A stretch of 62,931 bases of DNA, counting the filler, from Asterionella formosa (Eukaryota), in assembly GCA_002256025.1 (NCBI GenBank). It is 27 parts of 27 records of this genome, joined end to end, with 100 filler letters (N's around TTAATTAATTAA, not from the genome) between each part and the next. Parts side by side here need not be neighbours in the genome. Positions count along the whole stretch, not along the records: positions 39,732 to 41,962 come from NKIB01000169.1; 26 more parts are not named here. One strand, written 5' to 3'. Each line of letters starts with the position of its first letter. The stretch's first letter is position 1. The notes beneath the pieces were generated by a model. That model was not told the origin of the DNA. It made no database searches and worked only from the letters and a program-made list of their open reading frames with translations. Positions 1-62,931 of this stretch are shown piece after piece. Position numbers and translations under genes: made by a program.

Positions 1-410
1 ACACAACTAGCTACTAGCATCAGACACATACAAAGATAAAACCAAAATTCATTTTAGTCAATTGTATTGTACATATTTCGATTGAACGGAACAAATTGAA
101 TTCTAATAGACATGATAATAGAAAATCAAGTCGTTGATGAACCTGCTGATGGTCCTATGTACCATAGTTAGGATTCGAGCAGGCCAGCATAATTAACATG
201 AGTAACGATCCACTATGCCGGTGGCTAAATAATTCATACGTATTACTGGTATGAGTATATTTAACGCAACTTGCAGGTACCCGGTAACCTGGTACCAGTA
301 CCGACGCAAATCATTTTATGCCAATGCCTGGCTGATGAGAAAATGGGGACTGATGGGCTGAAAACAAACTCGCCCTTCATTGCGCACAATTCTATGTTTG
401 ACACAGCATC

Positions 411-1439
411 ATGATCTCCAGGCAAAGGTTCAGTTTATCCTTCCGCCAAATGCTGCTGCAAAGGCATATGTGCGCGTCACTGCCACCCGCTTCCGGTTAC
501 ATTGATGCTGATGATCATCAGCACTCAGTGCCATGCCTTCCTCCTGCACACGTTTTCTCATCGTTGTCCAGTAACGAACCCATGGCATACTCTCGTGGTT
601 GGGCACTGCAGCAAGTATTGCTTCAACAGCGATTGGAGCTTCGGCGCCAAACAGAAACACCCAACGACTCCGACCAAATACTAATGTTGCAACACTCTCC
701 AGTGTACACGCTTGGCCGCGGGGCAGATGAAAATCATCTGACATTTCTTCCGCAAGACGACGTAGTTAGGAGAGAAGCTCTTTCGAGAATCACGAGAGGT
801 TCTCAATCAGCCAGATTATCCGTTGATAAACAATTTCTTGTGACAGAAGAAACGTTTTGGTCCATTGTGGATGACTTATCCAATGGTGCGACACCTGTAC
901 TGTCGCCCAATAATGCCCCAATTTATCGGATTGATAGAGGGGGTGAAGTTACTTTTCATGGACCAGGACAATTGGTAGTTTATCCTCTGCTGGATCTAAA
1001 GCGTGCTCCGATGAAAACTGATCTTCATTGGTACTTGAGAATGGTGGAGGAGGTTATTATACAAGTATTGAAAGAATACGATATTGTCGGGAAACGGAAC
1101 GAGATCAACACCGGGGTGTGGGTCGGAGACTCGAAGTTAGCCGCGATTGGGGTTTCGTCTTCTCGCTGGATTACAACACATGGATTTGCTATCAATGTTG
1201 CCCCCGACTTGGAATATTTTGATACAGCATTTATTTTGCCATGTGGAATCGCAGGGAGGGGTGTTACTTCCATCGAAGAGGTGCTGATAGGACGAGGTGA
1301 ATCAGAAAGTAGTGTGCCATCTCTCGGTGAAGTATCGGTTAATGTACTAGAAAGAATGCAACAAATTTTCGGTATAGATGCCAACAGTAATTTTGTTGAA
1401 ATACCGGGTACTGGTAGTTTAATTGGAGATATGCCTTAA
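411..1439 (+). CDS. lipB: Lipoyl(octanoyl) transferase LipB/LIPT2, probably organelle-targeted
   Basis: Motifs LQHSPVYTLGR, IDRGGEVTFHGPGQLVVYP, TGVWVGDSKLAAIG (catalytic Lys), THGFAINV and ILPCG (catalytic Cys). Arg/Ser-rich N-terminus; about 50 extra residues before the DRGG motif. Confidence 0.95.
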   Translation: MISRQRFSLSFRQMLLQRHMCASLPPASGYIDADDHQHSVPCLPPAHVFSSLSSNEPMAYSRGWALQQVLLQQRLELRRQTETPNDSDQILMLQHSPVYTLGRGADENHLTFLPQDDVVRREALSRITRGSQSARLSVDKQFLVTEETFWSIVDDLSNGATPVLSPNNAPIYRIDRGGEVTFHGPGQLVVYPLLDLKRAPMKTDLHWYLRMVEEVIIQVLKEYDIVGKRNEINTGVWVGDSKLAAIGVSSSRWITTHGFAINVAPDLEYFDTAFILPCGIAGRGVTSIEEVLIGRGESESSVPSLGEVSVNVLERMQQIFGIDANSNFVEIPGTGSLIGDMP

Positions 1440-1479
1440 ATCAACGAATTTCCAACAATGCCAAGTAGCTGTACATGTC

Positions 1480-2241
1480 CTACCATCCGCAGTCATCATC
1501 ACTATCATCCAACAATGCTCCCGCTTCCAGCAGTTTTTTGTCGAGCGCTTTGCCAGGCAATTTTGATGCTTCCTTGTCTTCCTCCCTTCCTCTCTTCTTC
1601 CTAGACTCGGTTCTATTAAGCATTTGCAGAATAACTCCATCCGAAAAGAGATCGTCGGTATTGTTCAGTTCCCTAGTACCGGTACTTGATGGCTCATTCG
1701 ATCGATTTTTTAATGAAATACACGGAACACCTGGCGCGCTGAAGGATTGTTCAGGTTCGTCCAACGGTGCTTTTTCCAGCTTATCGTGTGGGTTCAACAT
1801 GACTTTCGTAGATACGGCAGATTTTCTTTTTGGTGCATCTTTTCTTACTTTTGAAATTTTTGTCACTGAGCCGGATTTGGAGGTTTCGGTCATACGTTGT
1901 ACAAGCGATGAATCCCACAGCGCATCGTGGTCATCGGGTTGTCCAGCTGCAAAATCTTCAGCAGTTTGCTCTCGTGTTGATCTAGGTTTGGAAGCCGTAG
2001 CATTTAATGGCAAATGAAATGCCTGCTCCTGTCTTTGTAGTCGATCTAGCTCTTTTTTCATTTCCTGCAGCTTATCGAGAGTGGTTGCGTACAATTGCGA
2101 GAACTGATGCGTCAAAATATCCTTGTCAAGTTGCCCCTGACGTTGCATAGAGTCTATTGTGGCCTTCCACTCTCTCACATGTTGCTGCAGTTGATGCTTA
2201 TCAGAGTTGGCTTGAATAATTTGTTGGCATTGTTGATTCAA
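1480..2241 (-). CDS. 3' part of an unknown protein with a Gln-rich coiled coil and low-complexity tail (5' end cut by contig end)
   Basis: Frame is open from the contig edge to a stop at 1480. Heptad-like Q/L/E segment; converges on lipB with a 40-bp gap. Confidence 0.6.
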   Translation of the reverse strand: MNQQCQQIIQANSDKHQLQQHVREWKATIDSMQRQGQLDKDILTHQFSQLYATTLDKLQEMKKELDRLQRQEQAFHLPLNATASKPRSTREQTAEDFAAGQPDDHDALWDSSLVQRMTETSKSGSVTKISKVRKDAPKRKSAVSTKVMLNPHDKLEKAPLDEPEQSFSAPGVPCISLKNRSNEPSSTGTRELNNTDDLFSDGVILQMLNRTESRKKRGREEDKEASKLPGKALDKKLLEAGALLDDSDDDCGW

Positions 2242-2341
2242 NNNNNNNNNNNNNNNNNNNNNNNNNNNNNNNNNNNNNNNNNNNNTTAATTAATTAANNN
2301 NNNNNNNNNNNNNNNNNNNNNNNNNNNNNNNNNNNNNNNNN
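2242..2341. other. Artificial contig-joining linker N44-TTAATTAATTAA-N44 (first of 26 linkers, spaced about 2.33-2.34 kb apart)
   Basis: The same 100-nt spacer, with a six-frame stop palindrome, recurs between all segments. Segment lengths fall from about 2241 to 2229 bp, as expected for size-sorted contigs. Confidence 0.98.
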
Positions 2342-2935
2342 TACCATCTACCGGTACTGTACATTACTTGTGATAAACCACCAAAAGTTGCAGTCATTTT
2401 TTCTGAAACGGATGTGAAGCGGGACAGGCGCCAATGTTCATCGTAACGGTACTTAAATTGGCGGTATATACCGGTACACACAGCGAACGTTTCAATTGAC
2501 TGTTTGAAATCGTCTGTACCACGATTGAGTGATGGAGACGGAGGCTTTATGATAGTTTAATCCTTCCAAACAACGCAAAAAATCTACTGGTACTTTGCAT
2601 CTTTCCCTCCAAATTCAAAATCCTTCTCCTTTTCCGACCAAAGTGATGAAACCAACAAATAATGAAGGTTCTAAAGGAAAGGCGCTTAATAAGCTCACAA
2701 TGCATTGAAATAGTAGAGAACGTCATCAATTCAACAAATCTTTGTGAAATTGTCTGTATCATAACTTCTCAGTGATGTAGGTGCTATGCTTATTTTACTC
2801 TTGCTTCCATTTTGTCATGCGCAGATAGGATTTTCGGCCATGAGACTAGAGATTTGTATGAAACTTACCTAAATGCTCTCCCAATTTTGAGAGTACTACC
2901 AGAAATTGGGGGTCTTGTACAGGTACCTAACTTCT

Positions 2936-3045
2936 TCAAAAGTATAGAATTTCTGGTAAGCATTTTTGAGCACCCTATAGCTACCTGTAACCACTGGAGC
3001 CTGATGCATCCCTGGAAATACTAACCAGAAATTCTATACTTTTGA
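2936..3045. repeat. 110-bp foldback or MITE-like inverted repeat
   Basis: Perfect 22-bp arms tcaaaagtatagaatttctggt (2936-2957) and accagaaattctatacttttga (3024-3045). Confidence 0.75.
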
Positions 3046-9829: not shown

Positions 9830-10080
9830 ATTCAATTAAACCAATCAGAATATATGTAGTGACGCAGGAACTTACCCTGGAGTCTTTTCGGACTGAGAAT
9901 TATTCAGCAAAACATACCTACGCAAGACTCCAAGTATACTAGAACGTTTTTGCATGCACAAATTCTGATTCCAATATTTTGGCGACTGTTGAAAAAGCCG
10001 ATCGGGTCGACTTTTTGGAGGAGAATTGCTCTACATCTACTACCGGTACGGGGCTTCATGAAGAATGAAATTAAAAGCCG
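9830..10080 (+). mobile_element. Diverged copy of the Crypton leader region
   Basis: ccaatcagaatat... and ttctgattccaatattttggcgactgttgaaaaagccgat align with 51780-52010 and 20045-20270. Confidence 0.6.
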
Positions 10081-17630: not shown

Positions 17631-18374
17631 GTCGTCAAGCTGCTGGTACACAAATGACCAGTATGCTGACTAGCACGTTGCAGTCATTTGGCTTTTAAAT
17701 AAACGATTTAATGAAGGATAATGGAGCTAAACCTCTAAGTAGTATCCTCAGCATAATTACCGCAACTTGCATTTACCGTTTGTACCTGGTACCGGTATGT
17801 ATTCAAATATACTGTATGAAGGACCCAAATTTACTTTCATGTGCATTGAACGGAATCACCGCTGTCCTATAACTAAGAGTTCTCCTGAAGTAGGTGGACG
17901 ATAGAAACCATCGATGAACAATACTACTCCGATTGAAAGTGACGAAAATACCGGTACCAGGTACTATCGTTCGCAAAACGCTCATTTCTTGTGCCCCTAC
18001 GTACCAGCACTTGTAGTCTATTGATATCATCGCAGCATTGTTCGATGTCGGATCGGCCGAAGTAGGTTTCGCATTCTTGTACTTCGTTTTATCTCGAATC
18101 CAACATTTTGTTAGTTGAACACAACCAGACCGTTGTCTAGTCAGCAAGGCACAACCTAATATATATTACGCACAGGCTCTTACGTCGTTGCAACCGCGAT
18201 TCTTCACCTGTTCTGTTCATGGACCTGTCTGGAATAAATCTGGCCACGTTCAATTGTATAGCGCTCCTTCAGCTCTTAATCAAAATATTTCCCTTCCGTC
18301 AGTAGCCAAAGTTGATTAGAATTCCTATCCAGAAATTTCCAATCCATTTTCTCATTGTGAAAAGATCGATTGCT

Positions 18375-19593: not shown

Positions 19594-20640
19594 GGTTCCT
19601 GCATTTCATATTGCTTAGGGTTGCAAAAATTCCCTGGAACTAAGAACTTTTATGAGCTATTTTTAAATGACATGATTCCATTTGAAATATTCAAATCAGT
19701 GGAAATTTGTGCGTATGTAAATAGATTCCTTTGTGAATTCACTAAATATATAGATATAGATTGTACATCTCTCTATATATACTGGTATACACTCTATACA
19801 CTGATTGATAGTTTATGTACTATCATACAACCCGGCGGCTCTGCAAGTATTTGAAGAGCACTCTAGGAGTGGTACACATGTGGCATATGATAATCATCTA
19901 CCAATAGTACCCATAGTGGATATGGTACTGGTGTACTGGCAATCACCCAAGACATTTTTAAATGTGTATCCACTGTAGCAAGTGTGGGTTTGCACAACCT
20001 CACAACAAACTGGGCCAATCAAATATGGGTAAGTAATTGAAGTTGACCAATCAAAATATTTATAATGAAGCAGGCACTTACAATTGAATTTTTTGTACAG
20101 GAGATTTTAGAAATGAATATTTTAGCACAAGACTACCATTCTGATGATGACGTTTTCGGTGATTAGTGATTCTGATTCCAACATTTTGGAGTCTGTTGAA
20201 AAGGCTGATTTTGTCGATTTTTTGGAGGATGATATCTCAACAATGGCTGGGTTTGAAGAAGAGTCAAGTACAAAGGTAATCTTCATATAGCCCCAGAAGA
20301 TAACTTTTGACAGAAAAGTGCAGGAAGTAACTTTGTTTTTTACTAGGCCAAATAAACAAGTTGGCCCAGTAAAATCCACTATTTTCAGCACAGTTTAAAA
20401 ACCGAAGTTCCTTTCTGCAGTTTCTGGCCAGATCCTAAATACTGACATTGCATAGAGTTGACCTATACCCCTACTTTGATCAATGACTGTATCTTAGCAT
20501 ATGGAAAGGGTGTATATTGGTGAAAGCTCCGTTTGGCGGTATACATTTATGTTTTACTCATAAGAAGTGTGTGTTTGAGTACTCTGACTCAATGTTATTT
20601 TTTAACCCTACCTCTAATCTAGGGTTGAAATGCAGGAACC
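19594..20640 (+). mobile_element. Non-autonomous member (about 1.05 kb) of the TTAA/GG..CC TIR family, containing Crypton-derived sequence
   Basis: Left end ggttcctgcatttc; right end ctagggttgaaatgcaggaacc followed by TTAA (20641-20644); left flank TGAA. Internal 19960-20390 aligns with the Crypton leader at 51705-52130. Confidence 0.75.
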
Positions 20641-23279: not shown

Positions 23280-23488
23280 GAATCATAAATATANNNNNNN
23301 NNNNNNNNNNNNNNNNNNNNNNNNNNNNNNNNNNNNNTTAATTAATTAANNNNNNNNNNNNNNNNNNNNNNNNNNNNNNNNNNNNNNNNNNNNGGTAGAC
23401 ATACTACATTGGACAAAGATTTTTTCTCCAGATGACGAATGTTGCACAGGCAAGAATGCTCCTTCGGTAATTATATTGTCATGTACCA

Positions 23489-23657
23489 GGGGAATGGCTT
23501 AGTGGTTAGCACACTCAATGTGGTGGCGGGTTAGATTCCTGCATTCTCCACCTGTCTTTTTCATATAGTCCCTAGGGTTCCGGGGGGTGCGGCTCACGAA
23601 AAGACAGGTCCTGTTGTACCTTACGGACGAATAAAATCGGTACTAATTGTGACATTT
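23489..23657 (+). mobile_element. tRNA-derived SINE, copy A (shorter 3' end)
   Basis: A-box TGGCTTAGTGG, B-box-like GGTTAGATTCC, acceptor stem GGGGAAT/ATTCTCC-A. 18-bp TSD ttatattgtcatgtacca (23471-23488) / ttatattttcatgtacca (23658-23675). Confidence 0.85.
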
Positions 23658-23740
23658 TTATATTTTCATGTACCAGTTGCTAATACGTAATAACTTCACT
23701 CGCAAAGAAGGATAACATTGACGTCTTGCTAGATATACAA

Positions 23741-28064: not shown

Positions 28065-28443
28065 TGTTGAAAGGTCTCGTACTCCTTCCCGTCTGACGGG
28101 TTCCTCTTACGTAGAACTTACCTGCTATACCACTAGTATTGTTATCTTCTTTCTGCTGCTAGCCTTCGTGCTAGTTTTCGTTATTGACCTTACTCTGTCA
28201 ATTCTCACTGTTTCTTAATTATAAGATTAAACTAAAACTAAGTTTCAATCCCATTCATCACACTTCGAGAACCTGTTCTTCGTGTTCCCTTTTCGTTGAT
28301 GTAAACCTTCTTCTGATTGATCTAAGACATCAATCTCGTTAGCAAGCTTCTTGACATGGGAACGCACCATTTGACTCATTGGACTATAGTCGAGTCCACA
28401 GTCCTTGTGACTCATTATAGCCATTGATGCTATATTCTTGACA
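28065..28443 (-). mobile_element. Complete 3' LTR (379 bp) of the Copia element
   Basis: On the minus strand, the purine tract gaggagga directly precedes TGTCAAG at 28443, and the LTR ends TTCAACA at the contig edge (28065). The pol ORF reads into the LTR. Confidence 0.8.
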
Positions 28444-30298
28444 TCCTCCTCGTTACCATGTTCAAGAAGTTCTAAAATTGTACCACTCAGCACGGGTCCA
28501 GATAACCTTGTAAAAATCTGCTCTTTGACATTCTTCGTCAAAATGTCTGCTGGATTGTTTTCTGATCTTAGAAAAACAATATGCAACTCACCCTCATCTA
28601 TCATGTTCTTGACATGATGAAACTTAATATCAATGTGTTTTGTTCTTGTTCCAAGTTGTTGATTCTTCGCTGTGAATATTGCACCTGTATTATCCTCATG
28701 TAAAATGCTTGGTAGGATATTTTTGCCACCTGTCACTTCGTTGAGTAACATTGCAATAAATTTAATCTCTTGAGCACATTGCGACATTGCAACGTATTCT
28801 GCTTCTGTGCTTGATAGCGTAACGGATGACTGGCCCTTTGATTGCCAACTGATCAACGCACCACCAATGGTAACCAGAAAACCCGTAGTACTTTTCCGGC
28901 TTACCTTATTAGCAGCCCAGTCACTATCAACATAAGCAATAACCCGCAATTCCTTAGGTTTTCGAATCTTGAGAACTCTGTCCAATTTGCTTGATAAGAA
29001 TCCAACAACTCGTGAAATTCCATCCCAGTGTTCTTCGCCTGGACAGCTTAAATACGAAGATAATTCACGTACTGCATTGGCACAGTCCGGGGAATCTTTC
29101 TTAGTAGACCATAATAGTTTCCCAACAATCTTGCGATATTCCGCCTCCATAATAGTTTCTCCATTATTGGCTCCTAATGTTTTTCCTGGTGCTCCTGGTG
29201 TCGCATAAGACTTTATCTTCTTACCAGTAAGCATTTCATATTCCAGTAGCATTTCAGTACGAAATTTCTTCAGTTGTACTTCCCAGTATTCTCCAAATTT
29301 GTCATGCTTGCGCATATATTCCACACCTAAGCGTTTTCGTAGAGGACCTTGTTCCGTGATATTAAAATCCTCCTTGATCATATTTTTCATATAGTCGACT
29401 GCATTCCTGGTACCACAAATAATTCCATCATCCACGTAGTTTGCCAACAGCCCTTCAATTTGTCCATCGTTGTTACGGTAGATAAACAACATTGGGTCTA
29501 TTTCACTTTTCGTTATACCTTTCTTGCTGGTGACGCACTTCGCGAATGTCTTAGACCAGCATCTTGGAGCTTGTACAATTCCATACATAGCCTTAATTAA
29601 TTTGCAGATATGTATATTCTGATCGATCCCTGTCAATCCTTCTGGGGGCTCAATATAAATGTCTTCGTCGACGTCAGCATTTAAAAACGCTGCTTCAACA
29701 TCGATTGCTTCCGCTATCCAACCATAGTACAAAGTAACAGCCAGAACAGTTTTTATTGTAGCATCACTTGCAACAGGAGCAAATGTTTCAGTAAAATCAA
29801 CTCCCGGGATCTGTTCATATCCCTTTACAACCAACCGTGCCTTGTATACTGTCTTTCCGGTTATCACGTCCTCCTTAATACGGAAGACCCATCTTGTCTT
29901 AAGAGCTCTCTTGTTCACGTCATTTCTCTTAACTATTTTCCATACTCCTCTTGCTTTGAAGTTTTCAAATTCTTTCTTTATAGCTTTCATCCACTCTTTG
30001 CGATCAGGTCTTACCATTGCCTCATCATAACTATTTGGTAAACCTGGGTCCGATGCAAGACTTGCATTGAATACGAAATTTACTTCAGTTTCCTTATTCA
30101 AAGATGCTTCCTCCTCAATCACATTTGGTAGTGAAGTGTCTGGAGGGAATTTAACATTTTTAGTTGGATTATACGATGAGTCCAACTTCTTCATTTCTCG
30201 TTCCAACTTTGCCTGTTGCTTCAAAACATTTCTCTTTTCTAGGTCAGAAATTTCATCACTCCTTGAGGTAGATTTTCCTTTTTCAGTGTCTGCGGTTG
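28245..30298 (-). CDS. Ty1/Copia pol 3' part: reverse transcriptase and RNase H, uninterrupted
   Basis: YKARLVVKGYEQIPGVDF, DVEAAFLNA, KAMYGIVQAPR, YVDD, YVDSDWA, SSTEAEY, EDNTGAI, RTKHIDIKFH, NPADILTK. Confidence 0.95.
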
Positions 30299-32744: not shown

Positions 32745-34478
32745 ATGGCTTTCAATTCTGGCGCAAGCGGCAGCACATCAGCACCAGCGGCTGGAGGTTT
32801 TTCCTTCAGTTCATCAAGCGGAAGTGCGCCAGCTGCAATTTTCTCGTTTGGAACAACTACTGAAAACTCGACAGCGTCCGGTCCTACTGCTGGCTCTGGC
32901 AGTGGATTCAGTTTTGGAGCAGCTCCATCAGGAAGCAATTCGGGTGGCTTCGGAGCAGTCACAACCACCAAAAGTGGAGGAGGGGGAGGAAAGCGTGGAG
33001 CTGATGGAGAAAAGCCAACGTCATTTGGTGCGACTTCCACAGCCACTGGAGGCTTTGGCGGTTTTTCTGGGGCTGCACCGAGTGCTGGTGGATTTGGTTT
33101 CAGTGGGTCCACTCCTGCTCCAACAGCAACAGCTACAGCTGCGGGATTCAGTTTTGGATCAGCTTCTTCCGCCCTCGCAGATTCTTCTCCTGGAGCAGGA
33201 GACTCAGCCGCTCCTGTACAAGCTTCGGGTGGATTCAGTTTTGGAGCGGCTGCCCCGGCGGACACTGCGCCTGCACCAGCTGCAGGTGGATTTAGTTTTG
33301 GAGCGGCTGCTCCTACCGATGCTGCACCTGCACCAGCTGCGGGCGGATTTAGTTTTGGAGCGGCTGCCCCGGCGGACACTGCGCCTGCACCAGCTGCAGG
33401 TGGATTTAGTTTTGGAGCGGCTGCTCCTACCGATGCTGCACCTGCACCAGCTACGGGCGGATTTAGTTTTGGAGCGGCTGCCCCGGCGGACACTGCGCCT
33501 GCACCAGCTGCGGGCGGATTTAGTTTTGGAGCGGCTGCTCCAGCAGATGCTGCACATGCACCAGCTGCGGGTGGATTTAGCTTTGGAGCGGTTGTTTCCA
33601 AGCCGTCGGAGGCTGTGCTTGCACCAGATGCTCCTGCAGCTGGTGGATTTAGTTTTGGAGCCGTGGACGCTGCTCCTGCTCCAGGTGGCTTTAGTTTTGG
33701 AGCTGCTCCTCTTGCGGATGCAGCTGCCAAGACGCTGGCGTCGAAGGCCCCAGAAAATAATGCAGCTGCATTATCCTTTGTTGACACTCCTGATTTCAAA
33801 GTAGCCGACCCGAAGCCTGCAACGACAGCTGCACCTTCCCTGGTTGGGGTTAGCACAACCGCAGCACCTGCGCAAGCAACACCCGCCAGAGCGAAGGATC
33901 CAGCTCGATTGGAGTACCAAACTTTGACTGTGGAACAAATTCTCAACAAGTTCCAGAAGGAGCTTGAGTCTGATGCTGTAGACTACATGAAGCAAGCACA
34001 TCGTGTTATGCAGTATGATGCCATTTTGAGAGATTCGCAGAGATCTCTCTCGCACATGACACAACAGACTTCCAAACTACTCGTTCAACAAACGGAACTT
34101 GAACAATTGCTTCAGGGAATCGGAGCCTTTCAGACAGAACTTGATTCCAACCTTACCAAAATGGAAACCCAGGTGGATGATTTGTTTCGGGCGCAATCTC
34201 ACGTGACACCAGTGGAAGCCGATCGCAAACGTGAACAAGCGTATAATACGGCTGTAGAAGTCGATGGTCGGCTCTCAATTTTAACCACCAACCTTCAATC
34301 ATCCCTGCATGCATTGGAGGGGGCTCAAGAAAATATCATGACTGCGGAAGTGGGTGATGTTGTACGGATCATGAATATGCATCAATCACAGTTAGAGCAG
34401 TTGGAACGAGCCACGCGAACCATGGATCATGATATAAAACAGTTGGAGCAAATGATGGCAGCAACTACAAGTACTTAG
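32745..34478 (+). CDS. NUP62: FG-repeat nucleoporin Nup62/Nsp1
   Basis: Many GGFSFG repeats, including near-perfect 60-bp tandem units at about 33228-33590. These are followed by an Nsp1_C-type coiled coil (LTVEQILNKFQKELE...QAHRVMQYDAIL...REQAYNTA). Confidence 0.92.
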   Translation: MAFNSGASGSTSAPAAGGFSFSSSSGSAPAAIFSFGTTTENSTASGPTAGSGSGFSFGAAPSGSNSGGFGAVTTTKSGGGGGKRGADGEKPTSFGATSTATGGFGGFSGAAPSAGGFGFSGSTPAPTATATAAGFSFGSASSALADSSPGAGDSAAPVQASGGFSFGAAAPADTAPAPAAGGFSFGAAAPTDAAPAPAAGGFSFGAAAPADTAPAPAAGGFSFGAAAPTDAAPAPATGGFSFGAAAPADTAPAPAAGGFSFGAAAPADAAHAPAAGGFSFGAVVSKPSEAVLAPDAPAAGGFSFGAVDAAPAPGGFSFGAAPLADAAAKTLASKAPENNAAALSFVDTPDFKVADPKPATTAAPSLVGVSTTAAPAQATPARAKDPARLEYQTLTVEQILNKFQKELESDAVDYMKQAHRVMQYDAILRDSQRSLSHMTQQTSKLLVQQTELEQLLQGIGAFQTELDSNLTKMETQVDDLFRAQSHVTPVEADRKREQAYNTAVEVDGRLSILTTNLQSSLHALEGAQENIMTAEVGDVVRIMNMHQSQLEQLERATRTMDHDIKQLEQMMAATTST

Positions 34479-35918: not shown

Positions 35919-36986
35919 GATTCCTGTATTTCAACCCAAAGACAAAAATTAAAATATTACTTAGGGTTGCCAAATTTCCCTGGAACTAAGAACGTATATG
36001 AGCTATTTTTAAATGACATGATCCCATTTGAAATATTCAAATCAGTGGAAATTTGTGCGCATGTGCATAGATTCCTTTTTGAATTCACTATATATATAGA
36101 TATAGATTGTACATAACTCTATATATACTGGTATACACTCTATACACTGATTGATAGTTTATGTACTATCATACAACCTGGCGGCTCTGCAAGTATTTGA
36201 AAAGCACTCTAGGAGTGGTACACTTGTGGCATATGATAATCATCTACCAATAGTACCCATAGTGGATATGGTACTGGTGTACTGGCAATCACCCAAGACA
36301 TTTTTAAATGTGTATCCACTGTAGCAAGTGTGGGTTTGCACAACCTCACAACAAACCGGGCCAATCAAATATGGGTAAGTAATTGAAGTTGACCAATCAA
36401 AAAATTTATAATGAAGCAGGCACTTACAATTGAATTTTTTGTACAGGAGATTTTAGAAATGAATATTTTAGCACAAGACTACCATTCTGATGATGACGTT
36501 TTCGGTGACTAGTGATTCTGATTCCAACATTTTGGAGTCTGTTGAAAAGGCTGATTTTGTCGATTTTTCGGAGGATGATATCTCAACAATGGCTGGGTTT
36601 GAAGAAGAGTCAAGTACAAAGGTAATCTTCAAATAGCCCCAGAAGATAACTTTCGACAGGTAAGTGCAGGAAGTAACTTTGTTTTTTACTAGGCCAAATA
36701 AACAAGTTGGCCCAGTAAAATCCAGTATTTTCAGCATAGTTTAAAAACCGAAGTTCCTTTCTGCAGTTTCTGGCCAGATCCTATATACTGGCATTGCATA
36801 GAGTTGACCTATACCCCTACTTTGATCAATGACTGTATCTTAGCATATGGAAAGGGTGTATATTGGTGAAAGCTCCGTTTGGCAGTATACATTTATGTTT
36901 TACTCATAAGAAGTGTGTGTTTGAGTATTCTGACTCAATATTATTTTTTAACCCTACCTCTAATCTAGGGTTGCAATGTGGGAACC
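35919..36986 (+). mobile_element. Allelic copy of the non-autonomous TTAA TIR element
   Basis: Ends gattcctgtatttcaaccc ... gggttgcaatgtgggaacc followed by TTAA. Confidence 0.75.
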
Positions 36987-37399: not shown

Positions 37400-39631
37400 G
37401 CATCTAAGCCGCGTATTACGTGAAGTGACCATCACATAAATAAGCCTAGTTGATTTTGAATGCATCACATGAATAAGTTGAATACATCAAAATACGTAGT
37501 TGAATATATCTATATATTATCTGAATGCATCACGTTAAATATTTGATCAAAGTATCATGCATGCATTCCTGATCATCACTATATTATATGATCACCTACA
37601 CATAATTATTTGAAATACTTCACATAATTATTTGAAATACTTCACATAATTATTTGAAATACTTCACGTAATTCTGTAATTTCGTTCACATAATTCTAGA
37701 ATAAAGTTCACTTAATATGTAAGATTTGTTTACGTAATTTTCTGGAGTTCATTCAACTAAATTAAAGAGTTTCATTAATGAAATAAAGCCTGCTCATTCG
37801 GAACGGCATGCGAATGCTCCTGCACTGAAAGGGTTTGCTGCAATGTCAATTGAATGTAAAGGAAGATCAGTGTGAGTTATCAGTAGCGTTGCTCATTTAG
37901 CCGTCAAAATAGCGCAGTAATCTTACCAGAACAACGTTCATTCCGGACCTCATTGTCCCTGCCTGTTGTCAACAACAATGCGTGAGCTGACAAGCCATAG
38001 CTACTATCATTTAGGTACACAACAAGAACACATTCACCATTCAACTGTATTGCAGAGTTCTTTTGGATTTCATCCCAATGCTCCTGAATTGAAAGGGTTT
38101 GCTGCAATGTCAATTGAATGTAGAGGAAGATCAGTGTGAGTTTTCTCAATGTTTATTGTTCCTGTCTCGTCCTTTCCTTCCTCTATTCTGAATCATGTGT
38201 CAGGCAGTGCCTACTAATGTTACGTCTCTTTCCCTGCTGTTAGTGTCACTCTGAACTTGCCGACTATTCCGTTGTTTGATTGGTTTTATGGTCCCATGCA
38301 GTTACAGACACAATGAGAAGGAATGATTTGTTAGCAAGTAGTCATGTTACATTGAAACAACGACACGCAATTCCATCGTATCTTCTTGCTTCACTTACCA
38401 CAAATCAATGCAACTGAGGATGCATAAGTCTGTAATAGTAACTTGTCAGTAAGCCAAATTCTTGAATAAGTAAGTTTCGGATATCCAATGTTGTCGAATA
38501 AAACTCACCGGTTCATTTTTGTCATCTTAACTTTGAGAGAAGGTCAACGTCTTGTCAGTTTTGTTCCAACAGAAGTGCATAGGTCCAACGAGCGACAAGA
38601 GCACTTATGCAATTTGGTTTTGTTTTGTTTTACATTGGTGCTCCCCAACAAGCGAAACGAGCTGTTGAATCAACTGAGAAAAAAGGAAATGTGGCTGCGT
38701 TTAGTTAACAATTTGTTGTTGTGCTGCCTGTCTCCCAACGATTGTCATCCAAGTAGCTACCACATTGATGGCTTCATTACCTTAAACATTCTCCATCCTT
38801 CGAAGGCGCAATGTGTCGAAGTCACAATGTTTTTCGTTATGTATTGTGAAAATTTTCTTTTCTCTTAATGTGCCTTACTACGACGTATCTTTTCATGAAG
38901 CAGCAGGCATTGTTTGTTAACATGACAGAACGATTTGAAAACTATATATGCCATGAATATACTAATAAAATTTGTAAATATATATATATATATTAAGTGT
39001 TATACATTTATAAAATTCAAAGGCACTGGTTGGGATGATCATACTCGCATATACATAATTCGAAAATACTCAATGCACCAGATGTCAATTGTTTTCCACG
39101 ACTACGTGTACCGTTATTATCTCTGAAATTTGTTTGCATCGATATTTTCTTCGTCCGTTGAAACTAATTATTTAGACCGTTCAATTGCAGCAAGGGTTTT
39201 GGTAGCAAATTGTTTAAGCCCCTTTTTTGGTTGGGAGCTCTTCATGTGTACCGGTACATCATACCGGTATGACAATAACAATATATCATATATATATACA
39301 GAGTACCAGTAGCAGGTAGTAAGTGATATACTGGGGGTAGTCGGAGTAGTAAACTAGCAACAGAACACCATATGTACAGGACTGTTGCTACTGCAGTGGG
39401 ACAGTAAATCATCATAGTTTTAGGATCATATGATCGTAAAACTAAAAACCAATAGAACACCATATGTAGGACCAGGCTGACGAGTTACTACCGGTACCAG
39501 GTAGTACGTCTACATCTTTTGTCAGCACCTTTAAGTAGCACTTACGGTTATGGTGGTACTATGTTTTTCCCTATTATTTTCTGTCGCAGCTCTGTAGAGG
39601 CTGCGATGTACGGTTATGGTGGTACTATGTT
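37400..39631. repeat. Contig nearly identical to 42063-44293 (haplotig or duplicate), with a 22-bp tandem x3 and a direct repeat of about 65 bp
   Basis: End-to-end match with only a few SNPs and a 1-bp indel. cacataattatttgaaatactt x3 at about 37599-37664; aatgctcctg...gatcagtgtgagtt at about 37814 and 38077. Confidence 0.95.
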
Positions 39632-39899: not shown

Positions 39900-40640
39900 G
39901 CATTGGAGTAATAAGGCTAGGCATATTGACTGCGGTAATCAATGTAGTCGATTTAACATACACATTGCAGAAATGATTACAATGGCGTTATTATTTTTGA
40001 ACATCAACTTTGTCCTTGAGATTATTCTTGTAGGCCTTTCCCAACCGTCCGAAAGTTCATCTGTACCATGTGCCAATCAATCCATTTGATGTCACGATTG
40101 TTTATCTTCGTATTAAAATTACGATTATACATCCGAAAGGTGTCCTATGGATGATTGTCAAAGTATCTCAAAAAAAGATGCATTTCGTAGACCGTGCATC
40201 CAACTTCTGAACTCCAATTCATACAGTTCTTACAAAGCCAACTCGCCCAAATTGTCTGAAGCAGAGTCTGGCCTCCTTATGTTCATGTCTCCATAGACCA
40301 TGTCATCTGGTGTCCAAATTCGCAACCTTATTCATCAATTTGTAGCTGTGTGTTTTGCTTCCGACCACAATAACTCCTGAAATTCATCCGAGCATTTCGC
40401 ACTCAACATGATTTCTAAAGCGCGCTGAGCGATGCACCGTAATAAAGCCATGTTCCACAAAACTATTGTGTTGCGGAGTGTGAGTCGAGGGGAATCAACT
40501 GCACCTTAATACTATGATTTTCACGTATTTTTTTCAGCTGCTTGCTGTTCTCACCTGCGTCATCACATCAGATGCATTTTGTCTTGTCCCCAGTCTTCAA
40601 TCTTGTAAGTAGACCATAAATAGCCATATTGGTCACTCTT
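39900..40640 (-). pseudogene. Heavily decayed Copia integrase region
   Basis: Minus-strand remnants KCI*CDDAGEN, HTPQHNSFVE, RQFGRVGFV, KLDARSTKCIF and NRDIKW parallel the sequence at 60900-61350. Confidence 0.75.
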
Positions 40641-40937
40641 CATCTTAATAAGATGGCTCCGGCGTTTCTTCAGCATACTGGCATGATCTACAGGCTTATT
40701 TTACAACAAAATAAGCAATATATAAATATTCAGGTCATAAAAGTATGTATAGATTTGTAATCTATAAAATTCACTTATGTTGAGATTGGGAAGCAGACGA
40801 AAGCAAGCAAACACACTTTCTTTCTAATGATTGCACTCAAATGTATAATTTTTCTTGTTTGCTAAAATTTAGGAGCATGAACAAAGTTAAGGCACATTTA
40901 AAACAGTAGCAACATGTTTGGTCAACGTGAATTGTAA

Positions 40938-41179
40938 TAAAATTGAAATTAAATTTTATAGTTCATAAAAGCTATCCAATAATTGCACTTGTGCCCAGAT
41001 TTTTAATGGAAACAATTAATACCGGTTTTGTTCATCCCTACAGTACAACGGCTCCTCTCTTTTCTTCAACCGCACCCCCCGGAACCCTAGGGACTACAGG
41101 TATATGAAAAAGACAGGTGAAGAATGCAGGAATCGAACCCGCCACCACAGTGGGTGTGTTCACCACTAAGCCATTCCCC
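40938..41179 (-). mobile_element. tRNA-derived SINE, copy B (full length, 242 bp)
   Basis: Minus strand GGGGAATGGCTTAGTGG...GCGGGTTCGATTCCTGCATTC with a perfect B-box. Perfect 15-bp TSD caacgtgaattgtaa at 40923-40937 and 41180-41194. Confidence 0.9.
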
Positions 41180-42062
41180 CAACGTGAATTGTAAAAAATA
41201 CATTAGTTCCATTAAAAAATTTCTGTTGTGCTTGCTATTGCCTCTATTTATGTATTATAAATATGTTATTTGCTTGTTTGTCTATATAAAATTTCCTGTT
41301 TATTTTCGTCTTTATACTCAGTCACTTTGTCCATTGACAATCAATATGTTATCATGAAATCTCAACAGAAATATCAATTACAAACTTACATAGAAAGTTG
41401 ATGTAAACAATTATGGATTTGCTAGATATTTAGTAGAAAAAGAGATTTGACATTCCTTGGATTAACTCATTGTGAATTATCAGAAACTTTTGTGCAAAGA
41501 GTGTAATGGCCCATCCTGATTTCCTGTAGCAGAGTTTGCTTTGGAACCACTTATATCAATAAATCAATGTTTGGCAGGTGCTGCTGTAGGTTTTTCCATA
41601 GTAATTTTAGATAACAGCTTAGCTAGCTTTTACCTGCACCTCAAAATGTCCGGAAAATTAGCAACCAAGTAATTGGCCATGTCTCGGAGACATATTTCTC
41701 CCACTTGCTCCAACACATCATGGTCCTTGTTCACATCCACAATCATCACCTTTTTCGTAATTTGATGCTGTCATGAATATTCTAATTACATTTTACTTTC
41801 TTTGTTTCGACTTTCTTCCACTCAGTTTCATCGTAATTCTTCTTTCGTTAATGTCATACTCTCGTCGACTTGTTGAATTTTTTACAAAGCCGCAATCTTG
41901 ATTAGAGGAGTTCCATAGATGTGCTACATTGCTCCAAATCATCTCGTTTGATCCCTCATACANNNNNNNNNNNNNNNNNNNNNNNNNNNNNNNNNNNNNN
42001 NNNNNNTTAATTAATTAANNNNNNNNNNNNNNNNNNNNNNNNNNNNNNNNNNNNNNNNNNNN

Positions 42063-44293
42063 GCATCTAAGCCGCGTATTACGTGAAGTGACCATCACAT
42101 AAATAAGCCTAGTTGATTTTGAATGCATCACATGAATAAGTTGAATACATCAAAATACGTAGTTGAATATATCTATATATTATCTGAATGCATCACGTTA
42201 AATATTTGATCAAAGTATCATGCATGCATTCCTGATCATCACTATATTATATGATCACCTACACATAATTATTTGAAATACTTCACATAATTATTTGAAA
42301 TACTTCACATAATTATTTGAAATACTTCACGTAATTCTGTAATTTCGTTCACATAATTCTAGAATAAAGTTCACTTATATGTAACATTTGTTTACGTAAT
42401 TTTCTGGAGTTCATTCAACTAAATTAAAGAGTTTCATTAATGAAATAAAGCCTGCTCATTCGGAACGGCATGCGAATGCTCCTGCACTGAAAGGGTTTGC
42501 TGCAATGTCAATTGAATGTAAAGGAAGATCAGTGTGAGTTATCAGTAGCGTTGCTCATATAGCCGTCAAAATAGCGCAGTAATCTTACCAGAACAACGTT
42601 CATTCCGGACCTCATTGTCCCTGCCTGTTGTCAACAACAATGCGTGAGCTGACAAGCCATAGCTACTAGCATTTAGGTACACAACAAGAACACATTCACC
42701 ATTCAACTGTATTGCAGAGTTCTTTTGGATTTCATCCGAATGCTCCTGCACTGAAAGGGTTTGCTGCAATGTCAATTGAATGTAGAGGAAGATCAGTGTG
42801 AGTTTTCTCAATGTTTATTGTTCCTGTCTCGTCCTTTCCTTCCTCTATTCTGAATCATGTGTCAGGCAGTGCCTACTAATGTTACGTCTCTTTCCCTGCT
42901 GTTAGTGTCACTCTGAACTCGCCGACTATTCCGTTGTTTGATTGGTTTTATGGTCCCATGCAGTTACAGACACAATGAGAAGGAATGATTTGTTAGCAAG
43001 TAGTCATGTTACATTGAAACAACGACACGCAATTCCATCGTATCTTCTTGCTTCACTTACCACAAATCAATGCAACTGAGGATGCATAAGTCTGTAATAG
43101 TAACTTGTCAGTAAGCCAAATTCTTGAAAAAGTAAGTTTCGGATATCCAATGTTGTCGAATAAAACTCACCGGTTCATTTTTGTCATCTTAACTTTGAGA
43201 GAAGGTCAACGTCTTGTCAGTTTTGTTCCAACAGAAGTGCATAGGTCCAACGAGCGACAAGAGCACTTATGCAATTTGGTTTTGTTTTGTTTTACATTGG
43301 TGCTCCCCAACAAGCGAAACGAGCTGTTGAATCAACTGAGAAAAAAGGAAATGTGGCTGCGTTTAGTTAACAATTTGTTGTTGTGCTGCCTGTCTCCCAA
43401 CGATTGTCATCCAAGTAGCTACCACATTGATGGCTTCATTACCTTAAACATTCTCCATCCTTCGAAGGCGCAATGTGTCGAAGTCACAATGTTTTTCGTT
43501 ATGTATTGTGAAAATTTTCTTTTCTCTTAATGTGCCTTACTACGACGTATCTTTTCATGAAGCAGCAGGCATTGTTTGTTAACATGACAGAACGATTTGA
43601 AAACTATATATGCCATGAATATACTAATAAAATTTGTAAATATATATATATATATTAAGTGTTATACATTTATAAAATTCAAAGGCACTGGTTGGGATGA
43701 TCATACTCGCATATACATAATTCGAAAATACTCAATGCACCAGATGTCAATTGTTTTCCACGACTACGTGTACCGTTATTATCTCTGAAATTTGTTTGCA
43801 TCGATATTTTCTTCGTCCGTTGAAACTAATTATTTAGACCGTTCAATTGCAGCAAGGGTTTTGGTAGCAAATTGTTTAAGCCCCTTTTTTGGTTGGGAGC
43901 TCTTCATGTGTACCGGTACATCATACCGGTATGACAATAACAATATATCATATATATATACAGAGTACCAGTAGCAGGTAGTAAGTGATATACTGGGGGT
44001 AGTCGGAGTAGTAAACTAGCAACAGAACACCATATGTACAGGACTGTTGCTACTGCAGTGGGACAGTAAATCATCATAGTTTTAGGATCATATGATCGTA
44101 AAACTAAAAACCAATAGAACACCATATGTAGGACCAGGCTGACGAGTTACTACCGGTACCAGGTAGTACGTCTACATCTTTTGTCAGCACCTTTAAGTAG
44201 CACTTACGGTTATGGTGGTACTATGTTTTTCCCTATTATTTTCTGTCGCAGCTCTGTAGAGGCTGCGATGTACGGTTATGGTGGTACTATGTT
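42063..44293. repeat. Near-identical duplicate of contig 37400-39631
   Basis: Same start, same end, and an almost identical ORF track. Confidence 0.95.
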
Positions 44294-44636
44294 NNNNNNN
44301 NNNNNNNNNNNNNNNNNNNNNNNNNNNNNNNNNNNNNTTAATTAATTAANNNNNNNNNNNNNNNNNNNNNNNNNNNNNNNNNNNNNNNNNNNNTGTTGTA
44401 CATTGAGCTGGGGCAGAGCGCTGGGAAAATTGATGTTGGTGGCTATTGCAAAATCTGCTGTTTCCCCATATTCCAGTGCCCAAAGTAACCCTTCTTTGCT
44501 GGGTTGATATTGGGTTGGTGCTGAGTATTCAATAACACCTAGCTAGGCTGGCAATGCCAGGAAGCGCTATTCGGGCGCCTACCCAGCAATAGACTAGTCT
44601 TACACAGTGGTTAAGACAATCTATGAGGTTATTATG

Positions 44637-44884
44637 GGTGGAATGCATGGATTAGTGGTTAGCACACCTTCTGCGGTCGTGGCGGTTCCGATTCCTGCAT
44701 TCTCCACCTGTCCTCGTTTTCAAGGAGTCCCTAGGGTTCTGGGGGTGCGGCTAACTAGAAGACAGGTCCCATTGTACCGTAAGGACAAATAACCCAGTAT
44801 TAATTGTTTCCATTCAAAATTTGGTCACGAGTGCGATTATTGGATAGCTTTATTGGACTATAAGATTTAAATTCAAATTTTAAA
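44637..44884 (+). mobile_element. tRNA-derived SINE, copy C (full length, more diverged)
   Basis: Aligns with copies A and B throughout. 12-bp TSD with one mismatch: gaggttattatg (44625-44636) / gagattattatg (44885-44896). Confidence 0.8.
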
Positions 44885-44971
44885 GAGATTATTATGCAAA
44901 AGCTGTTGTAGATATTGTGGCAGCAGTGATTTGAGGAAAACAAAAGGAGAAGAAGGAAGGAATCTGATTAT

Positions 44972-51556: not shown

Positions 51557-52164
51557 TCGGTTTTTGGGAAATCCTAAATGCTGTCAACCACCCATCTACA
51601 GTGACGTAGGATGACAAAACCATTATAAAAAAAGTAAAATATTTCTAGACTCCGTACGGATACCGGTATACGGGTAGGATCGGCCAAAACCCAAGAAAAT
51701 GCTTCATGTGCATCCAGTGTGGCCGGCGTGGGATTGCAAGACCTCGCAAACCGTGCCAATCGAACGGATATAAGGATAGCCAATCAGAATATGAATAATA
51801 CAGCGGGCAATTACAATGGAACTTTTTGTACACGAGAATTTACGACTAAAAATTTTAGTACAAGACTACCATTCCGATGATGACGTTTCGGCGATTAGTG
51901 ATTCTGATTCTGATTCTGACATTTTGGTGACCGTTGAAAAGGCCGATATTTTCGAACATTTGGAAGACGATAGCTCAGCGTTGGCAGGGTTTGAAGAAGA
52001 GTTAAATACATAGGTAATCTTCATATAGCCCCAGAAGTTAACTTTCTGCGAGAAACTGCAGAAAGGAACTTCGGTTTTTTTACGAGGCCAAATAAACGAG
52101 TTGGCCCGGTAAAATCCAGTATTTTCAGCATTGGCTATGATGACCTACAAAGATAGGATAGAAT

Positions 52165-58192: not shown

Positions 58193-58273
58193 GGGGAATG
58201 GCTTAGTGGTTCTTAGCACACCTATTGTGTGTGTCTCCACCTGTCTTTTTCATGTAGTCCCTAGGGTTCCACC
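58193..58273 (+). mobile_element. tRNA-derived SINE, copy D (B-box/T-arm deleted, cut by contig end)
   Basis: ggggaatggcttagtggtt...tctccacctgtctttttcatgtagtccctagggttcc. Confidence 0.75.
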
Positions 58274-60702: not shown

Positions 60703-60826
60703 GATTCAAATATTTCAAATGGAATCACGTCATTCAAAAATAGCTAATTAAATTCTTAATTCCAGGGAATTTTCGCAACCCTAAGCAATATTTTAATTTT
60801 TGCCTAGGGGTTCAAATGCAGCAACC
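60703..60826 (-). mobile_element. End of the TTAA TIR element, inserted in a Copia integrase
   Basis: Reverse complement of about 15271-15396, followed by TTAA (60827-60830), after which the integrase frame KKKNLLSKIVDE...LRCDNAGEN resumes. Confidence 0.85.
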
Positions 60827-62931
60827 TTAAGAAGAAGAATTTACTATCCAAAATTGTGGACGAGCTACTTATCAAGCTATTTGCAGCAAAATATGTCATC
60901 AAGTATCTACGATGTGATAATGCAGGTGAAAATCTCGAAAATTTGTCATCTGTATGCACCAAGCATGGTATTCAGATTGAATACACAGCACCAAATACAC
61001 CTCAGCAGAACGGTGTTGTTGAGCGCAAGTTTGTCAAGTGATGAGTTTCAAGGACTTCTTTGGGCAGAATGTGCCAACACAATGACTCGAGTGACAAATG
61101 TGGTTTCGAATTCAAGAAATATCAAGTGCCCTGATTGGCTATGGTATGGGAAACAACCTACAATCTATGAACACTTGATTCAATTTGGACGAATTGGATA
61201 TGTCACCATAAGAGCTCCTGTGAATAAGCTTGATGATAAAGCAATTAAATGTGTCATGATTGGATACTCTGAAAACCACTCAGGTGATACCTACCGACTC
61301 TTTAACCCTATAACCAAGAAGGTGATTCAGAGCCGTGATGTAAAATGGATTGAATGGCATGGAGAAACGAAACCTAATAATGATCTGACCATGTTCAAGA
61401 CTGGGATTGATGAAATTGAGTTTGAGGAGGAACTTGACCAACCTGCTGCACCAACTCCGACTGTCATCCCAGATGATGAGACTGGATCACTTTCGACTCT
61501 TAATGACTTGCAGGTCTCTGAAGCAGGGAGGAATGAAGCTTCAAATACTTCAAAACCTGCTATTACGAGAGCTGAACGAGAGCTCAAGAAACTTGGTCAT
61601 GAAACTGCTCCAACGATGTCTACACTACATTCTGGAAGATTGCATAATGTAGATGATGAGGATGATCTGGATTCTAAGCCTACTTCATCCATGGAGGTTC
61701 ATTACATCTATAGCTCTACACTTGCATCAGATCCAGGTGAACCCAAGACCTACAGTGCGGCACTGAAAGCAGATGACAGAGAAAAATGGATTCCAGCAAT
61801 CAAAAGTGAAATTGATAATTGTATAAAACGAAAAGTCTGGTCAAAATTCCCAAGATCAGAATTGCATGGACGCAAGCCGCTTGGGAGTCGATGGGTCTTC
61901 AAGAAAAAGAAGGAACAAGACTTGACTACACGCTATAAGGCACGTGTGGTCGTCAAGGGATAGTATGTTCAAATCCCCGGTGTTGATTTTACCGACTCGT
62001 TTGCACCTGTGGCTACGGATACAAGTATCAGAGTTGTCTTTGCAATCACCATGCACAAGAAGACATGGACTTTGGAGGTCATTGACGTCGAAGCATCCTT
62101 TCTTGAAGGAGACTTAGAGGAAGACATCTACCTTGAATGGCCTGAAGGCGTTGTTGAGTTTGGCTTTGAAGACAACAAGGTTGTCTCAGAAAATTGTATT
62201 CTTCTAAGTAAAGCCATGTATGGAACGGTGCAGGCTGCGCGACAGTGGTACAAGAAACTTGTGGAGCGTCTGATTCTCATTGGAATGAAACAGAGCAAAG
62301 TGGATCCATGCATTTTCTTCTTGAAACGTGATTTGAAATTGGTTCTAATTGTTTGTATCTATGTTGATGACTGCATTGTTGCAGGAGAACAAGCCGATGT
62401 TGACTGGCTTAAGGCTGAAGCCAAGAAGCATTTCACCATAAAGGAACTCGGACCAATCAAGAAACATTTAGGAGTTTGGTATGACTGGGGAGAGGATGCT
62501 GATGGAAGATTTCTTGAATCTACTATGGAGGATTTCGTTGAAGGAATGTTTGAAGACTATAAGAATCTCTTTGGACGTTATCCCGCAATTGCACCAACTC
62601 CCGGATTGCCAGGTACAAGTTTGTCCAAGAATGTTGCCCACACTGTTCTACATAGTGAATACAGATCCATGGTTGGAAAAATCTTATACTTTGTAAAGAA
62701 GATATCTCCAATTTGTGCCAATGCATGTCGAGAATTGTCTCAGCATCTGGAGAATCCAGGAGAGGCTCATTGGAAGGCAGTTGAACGTCTGTTGGGATTC
62801 TTATATGCAGACAAGAAACATCGGCGTATGAAGATGCGAACCCCTAAAGAAATGCGCCCAATGGATGTTGTTGACAGTGCATTTGCAATTAACCCTGATA
62901 CTCGCAAAAGTACAAGTGCATATCTCGGAAC
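60827..62931 (+). mobile_element. Inactivated Ty1/Copia pol (integrase, RT, start of RNase H)
   Basis: RCDNAGEN, TPQQNGVVER, KLDDKAIKC, YKARVVVKG*YVQIPG, IYVDD, VDSAFA. Deletion or frameshift at about 61040 and an in-frame TAG at 61961. Confidence 0.93.

Follow-up and report, generated by a model that had tools for sequence, protein, structure and literature searches.

Short interspersed elements (SINEs) were long thought to be missing from most unicellular eukaryotes (PMC5859163, PMC7466962). Here, an abundant SINE family with a tRNA-like head is described from a stretch of 62,931 bases of the freshwater diatom Asterionella formosa (assembly GCA_002256025.1)—hereafter the window—and from public sequencing data. 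In its mode of action, the element would be most like the ‘stringent’ SINEs that lack poly(A), exemplified by the Au-like SINEs of plants. Au-like SINEs are reported to share their 3′ end with RTE-type long interspersed elements (LINEs), and the features described for them—a head related to tRNA and bearing A and B boxes, conservation of the 3′ region, absence of poly(A), variable target-site duplications (TSDs) of about 10–20 nt, and a T-rich insertion junction—recur in the diatom element (PMC6007223). In contrast to Au-like SINEs, the diatom element ends in a plain T run after GACA and no partner LINE was found for it; the two are likened by description, not by sequence. An insertion signature reported for the Au-like SINEs, a T located some 10 nt downstream of a stretch of T residues (PMC6007223), cannot be judged from the four TSDs available here, which are too few. 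SINE tails in general may consist of poly(A), poly(T), or low-complexity sequence, and the T-run 3′ end of the A. formosa element resembles that of the poly(T)-tailed SINEs of plants, a likeness of structure alone between hosts of different kingdoms. The distance from B box to tail, the TSD beside the tail, and the lack of terminal inverted repeats (TIRs) agree with the features by which the AnnoSINE program recognizes SINEs (PMC8825457).

In diatoms, SINEs have so far surfaced only as entries in repeat annotations, as far as the accessible text of the reports goes. Thirteen ‘putative SINE’ copies totaling 1,454 bp in Phaeodactylum tricornutum were called the first in a diatom (PMC5859163), and SINEs were later put at 0.2% of a long-read assembly of the same species, with mention of reports in ‘two other’ species (PMC8147415). 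They are listed as a RepeatModeler class in C. cryptica (PMC7466962) and as 0.02% in C. tenuissimus (PMC8613185). These putative SINEs share with the A. formosa element the host group and the nominal class. However, they are categories of automated pipelines with very low abundance, and no anatomy of head, TSD, or tail accompanies them in the available passages, whereas the A. formosa element has a defined structure and a high abundance; it is the published descriptions that set the two apart. No account of the head, tail, or TSDs of a SINE was found in the full-text literature on diatoms, supplements not covered, and none was listed in a search of the stramenopile literature. The family is likely undescribed. 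SINE families exist in the oomycete Phytophthora infestans, a member of another stramenopile lineage; they are a lead only, and nothing was compared with them here.

By all structural properties tested, the element is of an ordinary kind, a tRNA-derived SINE, and not a new kind of mobile element. Its value is moderate and lies in what it offers to diatom genomics and to the biology of RNA polymerase III (Pol III) and of LINEs. An abundant and defined family could supply insertion-polymorphism markers for natural diatom populations, a handle on diatom Pol III promoters and terminators, and a route to the LINE machinery that would move it. It could also improve repeat masking and the assembly of diatom metagenome bins; in the window, one copy lies at a contig break.

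Copies, termini, and abundance of the element

The window is not one locus but is made up of 27 contigs of about 2.2 kb each, joined via N44-ttaattaattaa-N44 spacers, and the copies of the element therefore lie on separate contigs with unrelated flanks. The original prediction had placed four homologous copies in the window, and all four are present where they were claimed (Table 1). Their homology was confirmed by blastn, with 84.5% identity between c1 and c3 over 168 nt, 78.2% between c1 and c2 over 239 nt, and 97.3% over 37 nt plus 89.7% over 29 nt between c3 and c4. A family profile searched with nhmmer recovers the four copies with E values of 6.9e-74, 3.5e-71, 1.6e-57, and 4e-18, the next matches in the window having E values of 0.62 and 4.9. 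A weak match at 18199–18228 (blastn E 0.003, nhmmer E 0.62) was judged to be due to chance. Scanning of metagenome contigs with a core pattern of the element yielded a single locus, which is a fifth copy on an independent contig of 1,317 nt (L001). The core pattern had no matches in viral contigs and none in genome contigs, and a second pattern had none in either collection scanned. Five interspersed copies, 168–251 nt long when complete, non-coding, and embedded in unrelated flanks, answer to the short interspersed repeat from which SINEs take their name. The internal deletion in c3 may have arisen either before or after insertion of this copy.

Table 1. Positions of the SINE copies and of their parts along the window (for L001, along its own contig), with summed contig depths in four sequencing runs
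Feature	Position	Strand	Remarks
c1	40938..41179	-	full-length copy (242 nt) with head, hairpin of the body, 3′ module, and T-run end
c1 tRNA-like head	41118..41179	-	element positions 1-62
c1 A box	41163-41173	-	no mismatch
c1 B box	41129-41139	-	no mismatch
c1 T5 tract	41107..41111	-	6 nt after the head; also 5′ arm of the body hairpin
c1 TSD, 3′-side copy	40923..40937		15 nt, caacgtgaattgtaa, 15/15
c1 TSD, 5′-side copy	41180..41194		caacgtgaattgtaa, 15/15
c2	44637..44884	+	full length, 248 nt; most diverged copy
c2 TSD	44625-44636 and 44885-44896		11/12
c3	23490..23657	+	168 nt; 3′ module shortened by about 70 nt, lost between two AATTG repeats; GACATTT end kept
c3 TSD	23472-23489 and 23659-23676		17/18; 18/19 with one more T
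c4	58193..58273	+	truncated by the contig end at 58273; internal deletion took T arm and B box
L001	element 342-592 of the 1,317-nt contig		fifth copy, from the pattern scan
L001 TSD			aatttcctgtct vs aatttctgtct; 11-12 nt, one indel
Unique flanks of c1			depth ~86-97 (X1), ~800-2,800 (X5), ~6-7 (X6), ~2.5-5 (X7)
Head bin	41082-41156		summed depth 42,045 (X1), 619,846 (X5), 1,981 (X6), 1,752 (X7)
Body bin	41007-81		summed depth 4,058 (X1), 81,784 (X5), 247 (X6), 153 (X7)
3′ module bin	40932-41006		summed depth 25,825 (X1), 415,208 (X5), 942 (X6), 1,135 (X7)
Plastid-ycf2 weak match, c1	41117-41176	+	
Plastid-ycf2 weak match, c3	23489-23551	-	
Plastid-ycf2 weak match, L001	344-400 of the contig	-	

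TSDs are present at all four complete copies, and their lengths all differ (15, 12, 18–19, and 11–12 nt for c1, c2, c3, and L001, respectively). Three of them had been claimed beforehand, as repeats of 18 bp with one mismatch, 15 bp without mismatch, and 12 bp with one mismatch, and each could be verified in the sequence. The c1 pair emerged as the top direct repeat of its own contig in an independent repeat search and reaches 18/19 if extended into the A/T run. Since the c3 duplication can gain one more T, the start of this copy is ambiguous between 23489 and 23490. As a control for chance, 5000 random pairs of positions 169–248 nt apart were scored; a score of at least 10 occurred in 0.3% of pairs and a score of at least 15 in 0.06%, as compared with observed scores of 15, 10, and 16 for c1, c2, and c3. 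The elements start with GGGG and end in a T run, lacking the TG...CA ends of long terminal repeats (LTRs). TIRs are absent as well, only 10–12 of 30 positions matching between the termini in 4/4 copies. The combination of TIRs with a TSD of fixed length, named in advance as the observation that would speak against a SINE, is not seen in the complete copies. At the c1 junction, where the flank reads ...gtatttttTTACAATT..., the target is T-rich, which would fit annealing of an oligo(U) RNA end to a nicked target, four sites being too few for a signature.

The abundance and the boundaries of the family were assessed in Logan contigs from four runs (X1, X5, X6, and X7), each from a different study, which were aligned to the 2.2-kb contig of c1 at a likeness of at least 85% (336–3028 aligned contigs per run). 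In all four runs, the summed contig depth over the element is about 300–500 times that of the unique flanks, although summed contig depth does not equal copy number and related species or other organisms may contribute to it. The depth is taken to mean ‘hundreds of copy-equivalents’, and the family deserves to be called abundant, as had been proposed. Because of the depths of the individual bins, the head (8–11 times) and the 3′ module (4–7 times) can be said to occur in far more sequence than the body of c1. Many joints jump over 70–123 nt, from about 40989–40997 to about 41060–41121, which fits subfamilies that have another body or lack one altogether.

At 41179, the 5′ end of the element, 18–26 contigs per run pass into unrelated sequence with an agreement of 0.38–0.43, and 26–72 contigs per run leave the reference at about 40947, near the 3′ end. 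The consensus strings at 40947 read, on the element strand and in 4/4 runs, GACA followed by 6–12 T and then by unrelated sequence. The 5′ end of the family is sharp at the first G of the head, and its canonical 3′ end is ...AATT-GACA-T(n), the last nine bases of c1 being a diverged form of the GACA-T(n) end. The ‘AT-rich, non-poly(A) tail’ of the original prediction was thus right in kind, but imprecise, given a family 3′ end of GACA plus T6–12. In the complete copies (4/4), the T run is followed by 0–7 A/T bases and then by the TSD; it comprises T4–5 in c1, c2, and L001, while the T3 of c3 merges with the first T residues of its TSD into a run of five.

The c1 site itself is occupied wherever the listed contigs bridge a junction by at least 31 letters, that is, at the 3′ junction in X1, X6, and X7 and at the 5′ junction in X1 and X7. 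A single-nucleotide polymorphism at 41193 falls within the 5′-side TSD of c1 in runs X6 and X7. In one contig each of X1 and X7, position 40740 is joined to 41409, so that 668 nt including the SINE and its flanks are skipped; this join, the shorter side of which is supported by 21 letters, might reflect an allele with a deletion or a misjoin caused by repeats.

Organization of the tRNA-like head, body, and 3′ module

The head was predicted to be a tRNA-like module of about 62 nt with A and B boxes, an acceptor stem formed by GGGGAAT and ATTCTCC and followed by A, a T arm, and a shrunken anticodon arm, and these features are present as claimed. The boxes were scored against the consensus motifs TRGCNNAGTGG (A box) and GGTTCGANNCC (B box). 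The A box has no mismatch in c1, c3, and c4 and one in c2 and L001, and the B box none in c1 and L001, one in c3, and two in c2, while it is deleted in c4. The boxes are spaced 34–37 nt start to start; a spacing of 34 leaves 23 nt between them, which is at or just under the A–B window of 25–50 nt used by AnnoSINE (PMC8825457). With a permissive threshold, positions 1–71 of the Rfam tRNA model can be aligned to the head of c3, at 24.2 bits (gathering threshold 29) and an E value of 0.002. In this alignment, all seven acceptor pairs (GGGGAAU with AUUCUCC) are standard, with G3.U70 and A73; one nucleotide is missing at position 8/9, a U13.U22 mismatch is present, and the inner anticodon arm is reduced from 13 model positions to 5. 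Lower covariance-model scores were obtained for the heads of L001 (14.1 bits with tmRNA, a model of the tRNA clan) and c1 (7.9 bits). Alignment with two real tRNA genes likewise opens a 10-nt gap in the anticodon arm and retains the variable loop AGGTG, and the remnant of the anticodon arm differs among the copies. Judged by these alignments, the head would be a tRNA gene remnant in which the Pol III boxes persist, while the anticodon arm is shorter by about 10 nt and one nucleotide is missing at 8/9. The public contigs mend two flaws of c1: most carry G at 41120, which restores the G2–C71 pair, and A at 41161, which restores a GGTTAG D loop. No majority change relative to c1 is listed at the U70 position.

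ARAGORN run at a threshold of 70% called only c2, as an Arg tRNA, and nothing in 4/5 heads; this call was disregarded. The reverse strand of the head has weak matches to the Rfam model of the Plastid-ycf2 5′UTR RNA (15–20 bits, as compared with a gathering threshold of 65.7). These matches are regarded as artefacts of tRNA likeness, and the model itself appears to hold an antisense tRNA-like stretch.

The original prediction went further and derived the SINE from tRNA-Ala. The first half of this claim stands, as the boxes, the sharp boundaries, the variable TSDs (4/4), and the lack of TIRs mark a SINE-type retroposon; the origin from tRNA-Ala, by contrast, is not established, and the case for it is evenly balanced. 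The predicted G3.U70 wobble and discriminator A are indeed present in the register picked by the Rfam tRNA model for c3. Together with G1–C72 and G2–C71 (in the family majority), they make the outer acceptor pairs Ala-like; G4–C69 belongs to the same register, and T70 is found in 5/5 copies. The register that gives G3.U70 nevertheless costs one deleted nucleotide at 8/9, and a shift by one position, worked out by hand, would turn the wobble into G4.U69. The anticodon is gone, together with about 10 nt of its arm including the loop. Annotated phage tRNAs served as a proxy, and only as such: the 3′ half of the head matches tRNA-Ala best (94% over 34 nt, E 6e-6), with tRNA-Thr in second place (E 3e-3). 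The tRNA-Ala match comes from five related Streptomyces phages and counts as one independent gene; a sixth relative is annotated as tRNA-Cys. Over the full alignment, identity with the Thr gene covers the inner acceptor stem (GAAT/ATTC) and the entire T arm, and agreement with the Ala gene is confined to the three outer acceptor pairs. The head has no match in E. coli genomes, and the window contains no tRNA genes.

Downstream of the head, the conserved feature of the body is a long putative hairpin in which ACCTGTC(TTTT) would pair with (AAAG)GACAGGT around an invariant AGTCCCTAGGGTTC. The RNAalifold consensus comprises the T arm together with a hairpin in the body (7+4 pairs), and these pairs persist in 3–4 of 4 copies. 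Ending in GACA and the T run, the 3′ module spans about 60 nt and contains ..TTGGATAGCTTT.. Behind the head lies a further T tract, present as T5 in c1, c3, and c4 and as T4 in c2, with no such tract in L001. The consensus of loose-end contigs at 41098 suggests the presence of the T5 tract in most of the family. The tract resembles a terminator inherited from the parent tRNA gene.

Proposed retroposition and alternative explanations

These elements very probably constitute a family of tRNA-derived SINEs, i.e., short non-autonomous non-LTR retroposons, that resides in the nuclear genome of the diatom and spreads by target-primed reverse transcription. The internal promoter, the sharp 5′ end, the T-run 3′ end, the variable TSDs of 11–19 bp, the absence of TIRs and LTRs, and the high copy number together point to an RNA made by Pol III and inserted by this mechanism. 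On the observed structure, boundaries, duplications, and abundance, the following pathway can be proposed. Pol III would start at the 5′ end of the head, guided by the internal boxes, would pass the T5 tract behind the head, and would stop at the terminal T run. A LINE would then supply the endonuclease and the reverse transcriptase by which the RNA is copied into a nicked target. As the partner, an RTE-like element, or another of the non-LTR elements reported from diatoms, is likely; such partners are plausible because RTE-like non-LTR elements have been described in Thalassiosira pseudonana (PMC2806351) and LINE/Ambal elements in Pleurosigma (PMC12803021).

A more specific proposal, which we advance tentatively and consider somewhat less probable than not, combines several propositions. 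According to it, the family would be the first structurally defined, high-copy tRNA-derived SINE of a diatom, absent from Repbase, Dfam, and SINEBase, dependent on read-through by Pol III, and primed by its oligo(U) end via an RTE-like LINE. The anatomy would be unusual in that the head, possibly of Ala origin, would come with a T5 terminator of its own, followed by about 170 nt up to a second, oligo(T) terminator. The family would then have been born from, and would still depend on, read-through of a tRNA-type terminator, and the oligo(U) end of its RNA would prime on T-rich or A-rich nicked targets.

Several observations weigh against the SINE interpretation and its proposed pathway. The search for a LINE with the same 3′ tail, which the original prediction had called for, came up empty, as the tail matches nothing outside the copies in the window (about 60 kb). 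No reverse transcriptase or endonuclease domain of a non-LTR element was found in 44 of the 62 stop-to-stop open reading frames (ORFs) of at least 110 aa—the other 18 either share sequence with scanned ORFs in a different frame or fall within FG-repeat or spacer regions—and two Copia-type RVT_2 domains were the only reverse transcriptases encountered. ARAGORN reported no tRNA gene in the heads at its default, 95%, and 85% thresholds, and Rfam no match to the head at gathering thresholds. The T5 tract could stop Pol III after about 70 nt, so that full-length RNA would need read-through. The body fold, plausible as a model, is supported by a single compensatory pair, and the depth over the element is open to the contributions of other organisms mentioned above. 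The proposed check for empty alleles revealed no empty c1 site among the 15 joints listed out of 33, which is not evidence of absence. No empty paralogous site was found in the window either, in searches that used the copies, and not their flanks, as queries.

The missing partner gives some room to a SINE-like retroposon copied by means other than a LINE, namely by a Copia reverse transcriptase or by template switching, and primed by the oligo(U) end. The reverse transcriptases seen in the window are all of the Copia type, no match to a LINE tail was found there, and the T run in which the element ends corresponds to a Pol III terminator and not to the 3′ end of a known LINE. Integrases of LTR elements leave short, fixed duplications of 4–6 bp, and LTR termini read TG..CA. 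The TSDs of 11–19 bp, variable in length, do not conform to this, and the 3′ module and the head are of similar abundance (25825 and 42045 in X1), which fits a 3′ module recognized by a partner; copying without a LINE is therefore considered unlikely. The same TSDs argue against a solo LTR or a small non-autonomous LTR retrotransposon harboring a tRNA-like sequence, of the Helenus or Ajax type. LTR elements derived from small-RNA genes have been reported (PMC10886601) and Copia elements are present in the window, but the element starts with GGGG and ends in a T run instead of showing TG...CA ends, and no second, directly oriented copy lies on the same contig, which makes this explanation very unlikely.

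Two further explanations can be considered. A miniature inverted-repeat transposable element (MITE), or another derivative of a cut-and-paste DNA transposon with a tRNA-like stretch by chance, would be short, AT-rich at one end, and present in many copies, as is the case here. However, the termini (4/4 copies) lack inverted repeats and the four TSD lengths all differ, so that this possibility appears exceedingly remote. Just as improbable is an origin of the copies without mobility, either as tRNA pseudogenes multiplied by segmental duplication or as artefacts of assembly or chimerism in short contigs. The assembly is highly fragmented and contains near-identical contig pairs, and c4 sits at a contig end. 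Yet dozens of contigs per run, from four independent studies, share sharp boundaries beyond which their flanks are unrelated, each complete copy has a direct repeat of its own, and a further copy resides on the independent metagenome contig.

Host assignment and other repeats in the window

The DNA is eukaryotic, and the host is most likely a diatom, judging by protein relationships. Pfam domains detected in the ORFs of the window comprise RVT_2 (Copia-type reverse transcriptase, twice), PI-PLC with C2, a galactosyltransferase, and a LipB-type lipoyltransferase. Among the best 120 relatives of the LipB ORF, every organism-named match is a diatom, with 48–55% identity (Cylindrotheca, Nitzschia, Attheya, Mayamaea, Seminavis, and Fragilaria); the matches also include a protein with 98% identity. 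The contig of c1 is at least partly present in 20 public runs from 15 studies, labeled mostly as freshwater, lake, or algal metagenomes, and six runs recorded as RNA contain part of it.

Two other stretches of the c1 contig, 40482–40631 and 41307–41531, have excess depth in most or all of the four runs, reaching up to 1,589 and 998, respectively, in X1, as compared with about 90 in the flanks; they are other repeats beside the SINE. The Copia-type sequences of the window are retrotransposon fragments at 28245–30224 on the minus strand (RVT_2, E 8.5e-47) and at 60800–61963 on the plus strand (a retroviral SH3-like domain and the start of RVT_2). The contig pairs 18620–20986/34967–37329 and 37300–39600/41963–44254 are nearly identical (95–100% identity) and probably represent haplotigs or assembly duplicates of one locus. 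A 22-nt tandem repeat array occurs in both members of a duplicated pair, at 37561–37760 and 42224–42423. A 57-nt tandem repeat of about 11 units at 33073–33724 yields GGFSFG-type units when read by codon, like an FG-repeat nucleoporin. Finally, a dispersed repeat with 73–81% identity is found on four contigs (9962–10035, 20169–20242, 36515–36588, and 51907–51980), neighbored by the further repeat families D5, D6, D14, and D20, and looks like a multi-copy gene or another element family.

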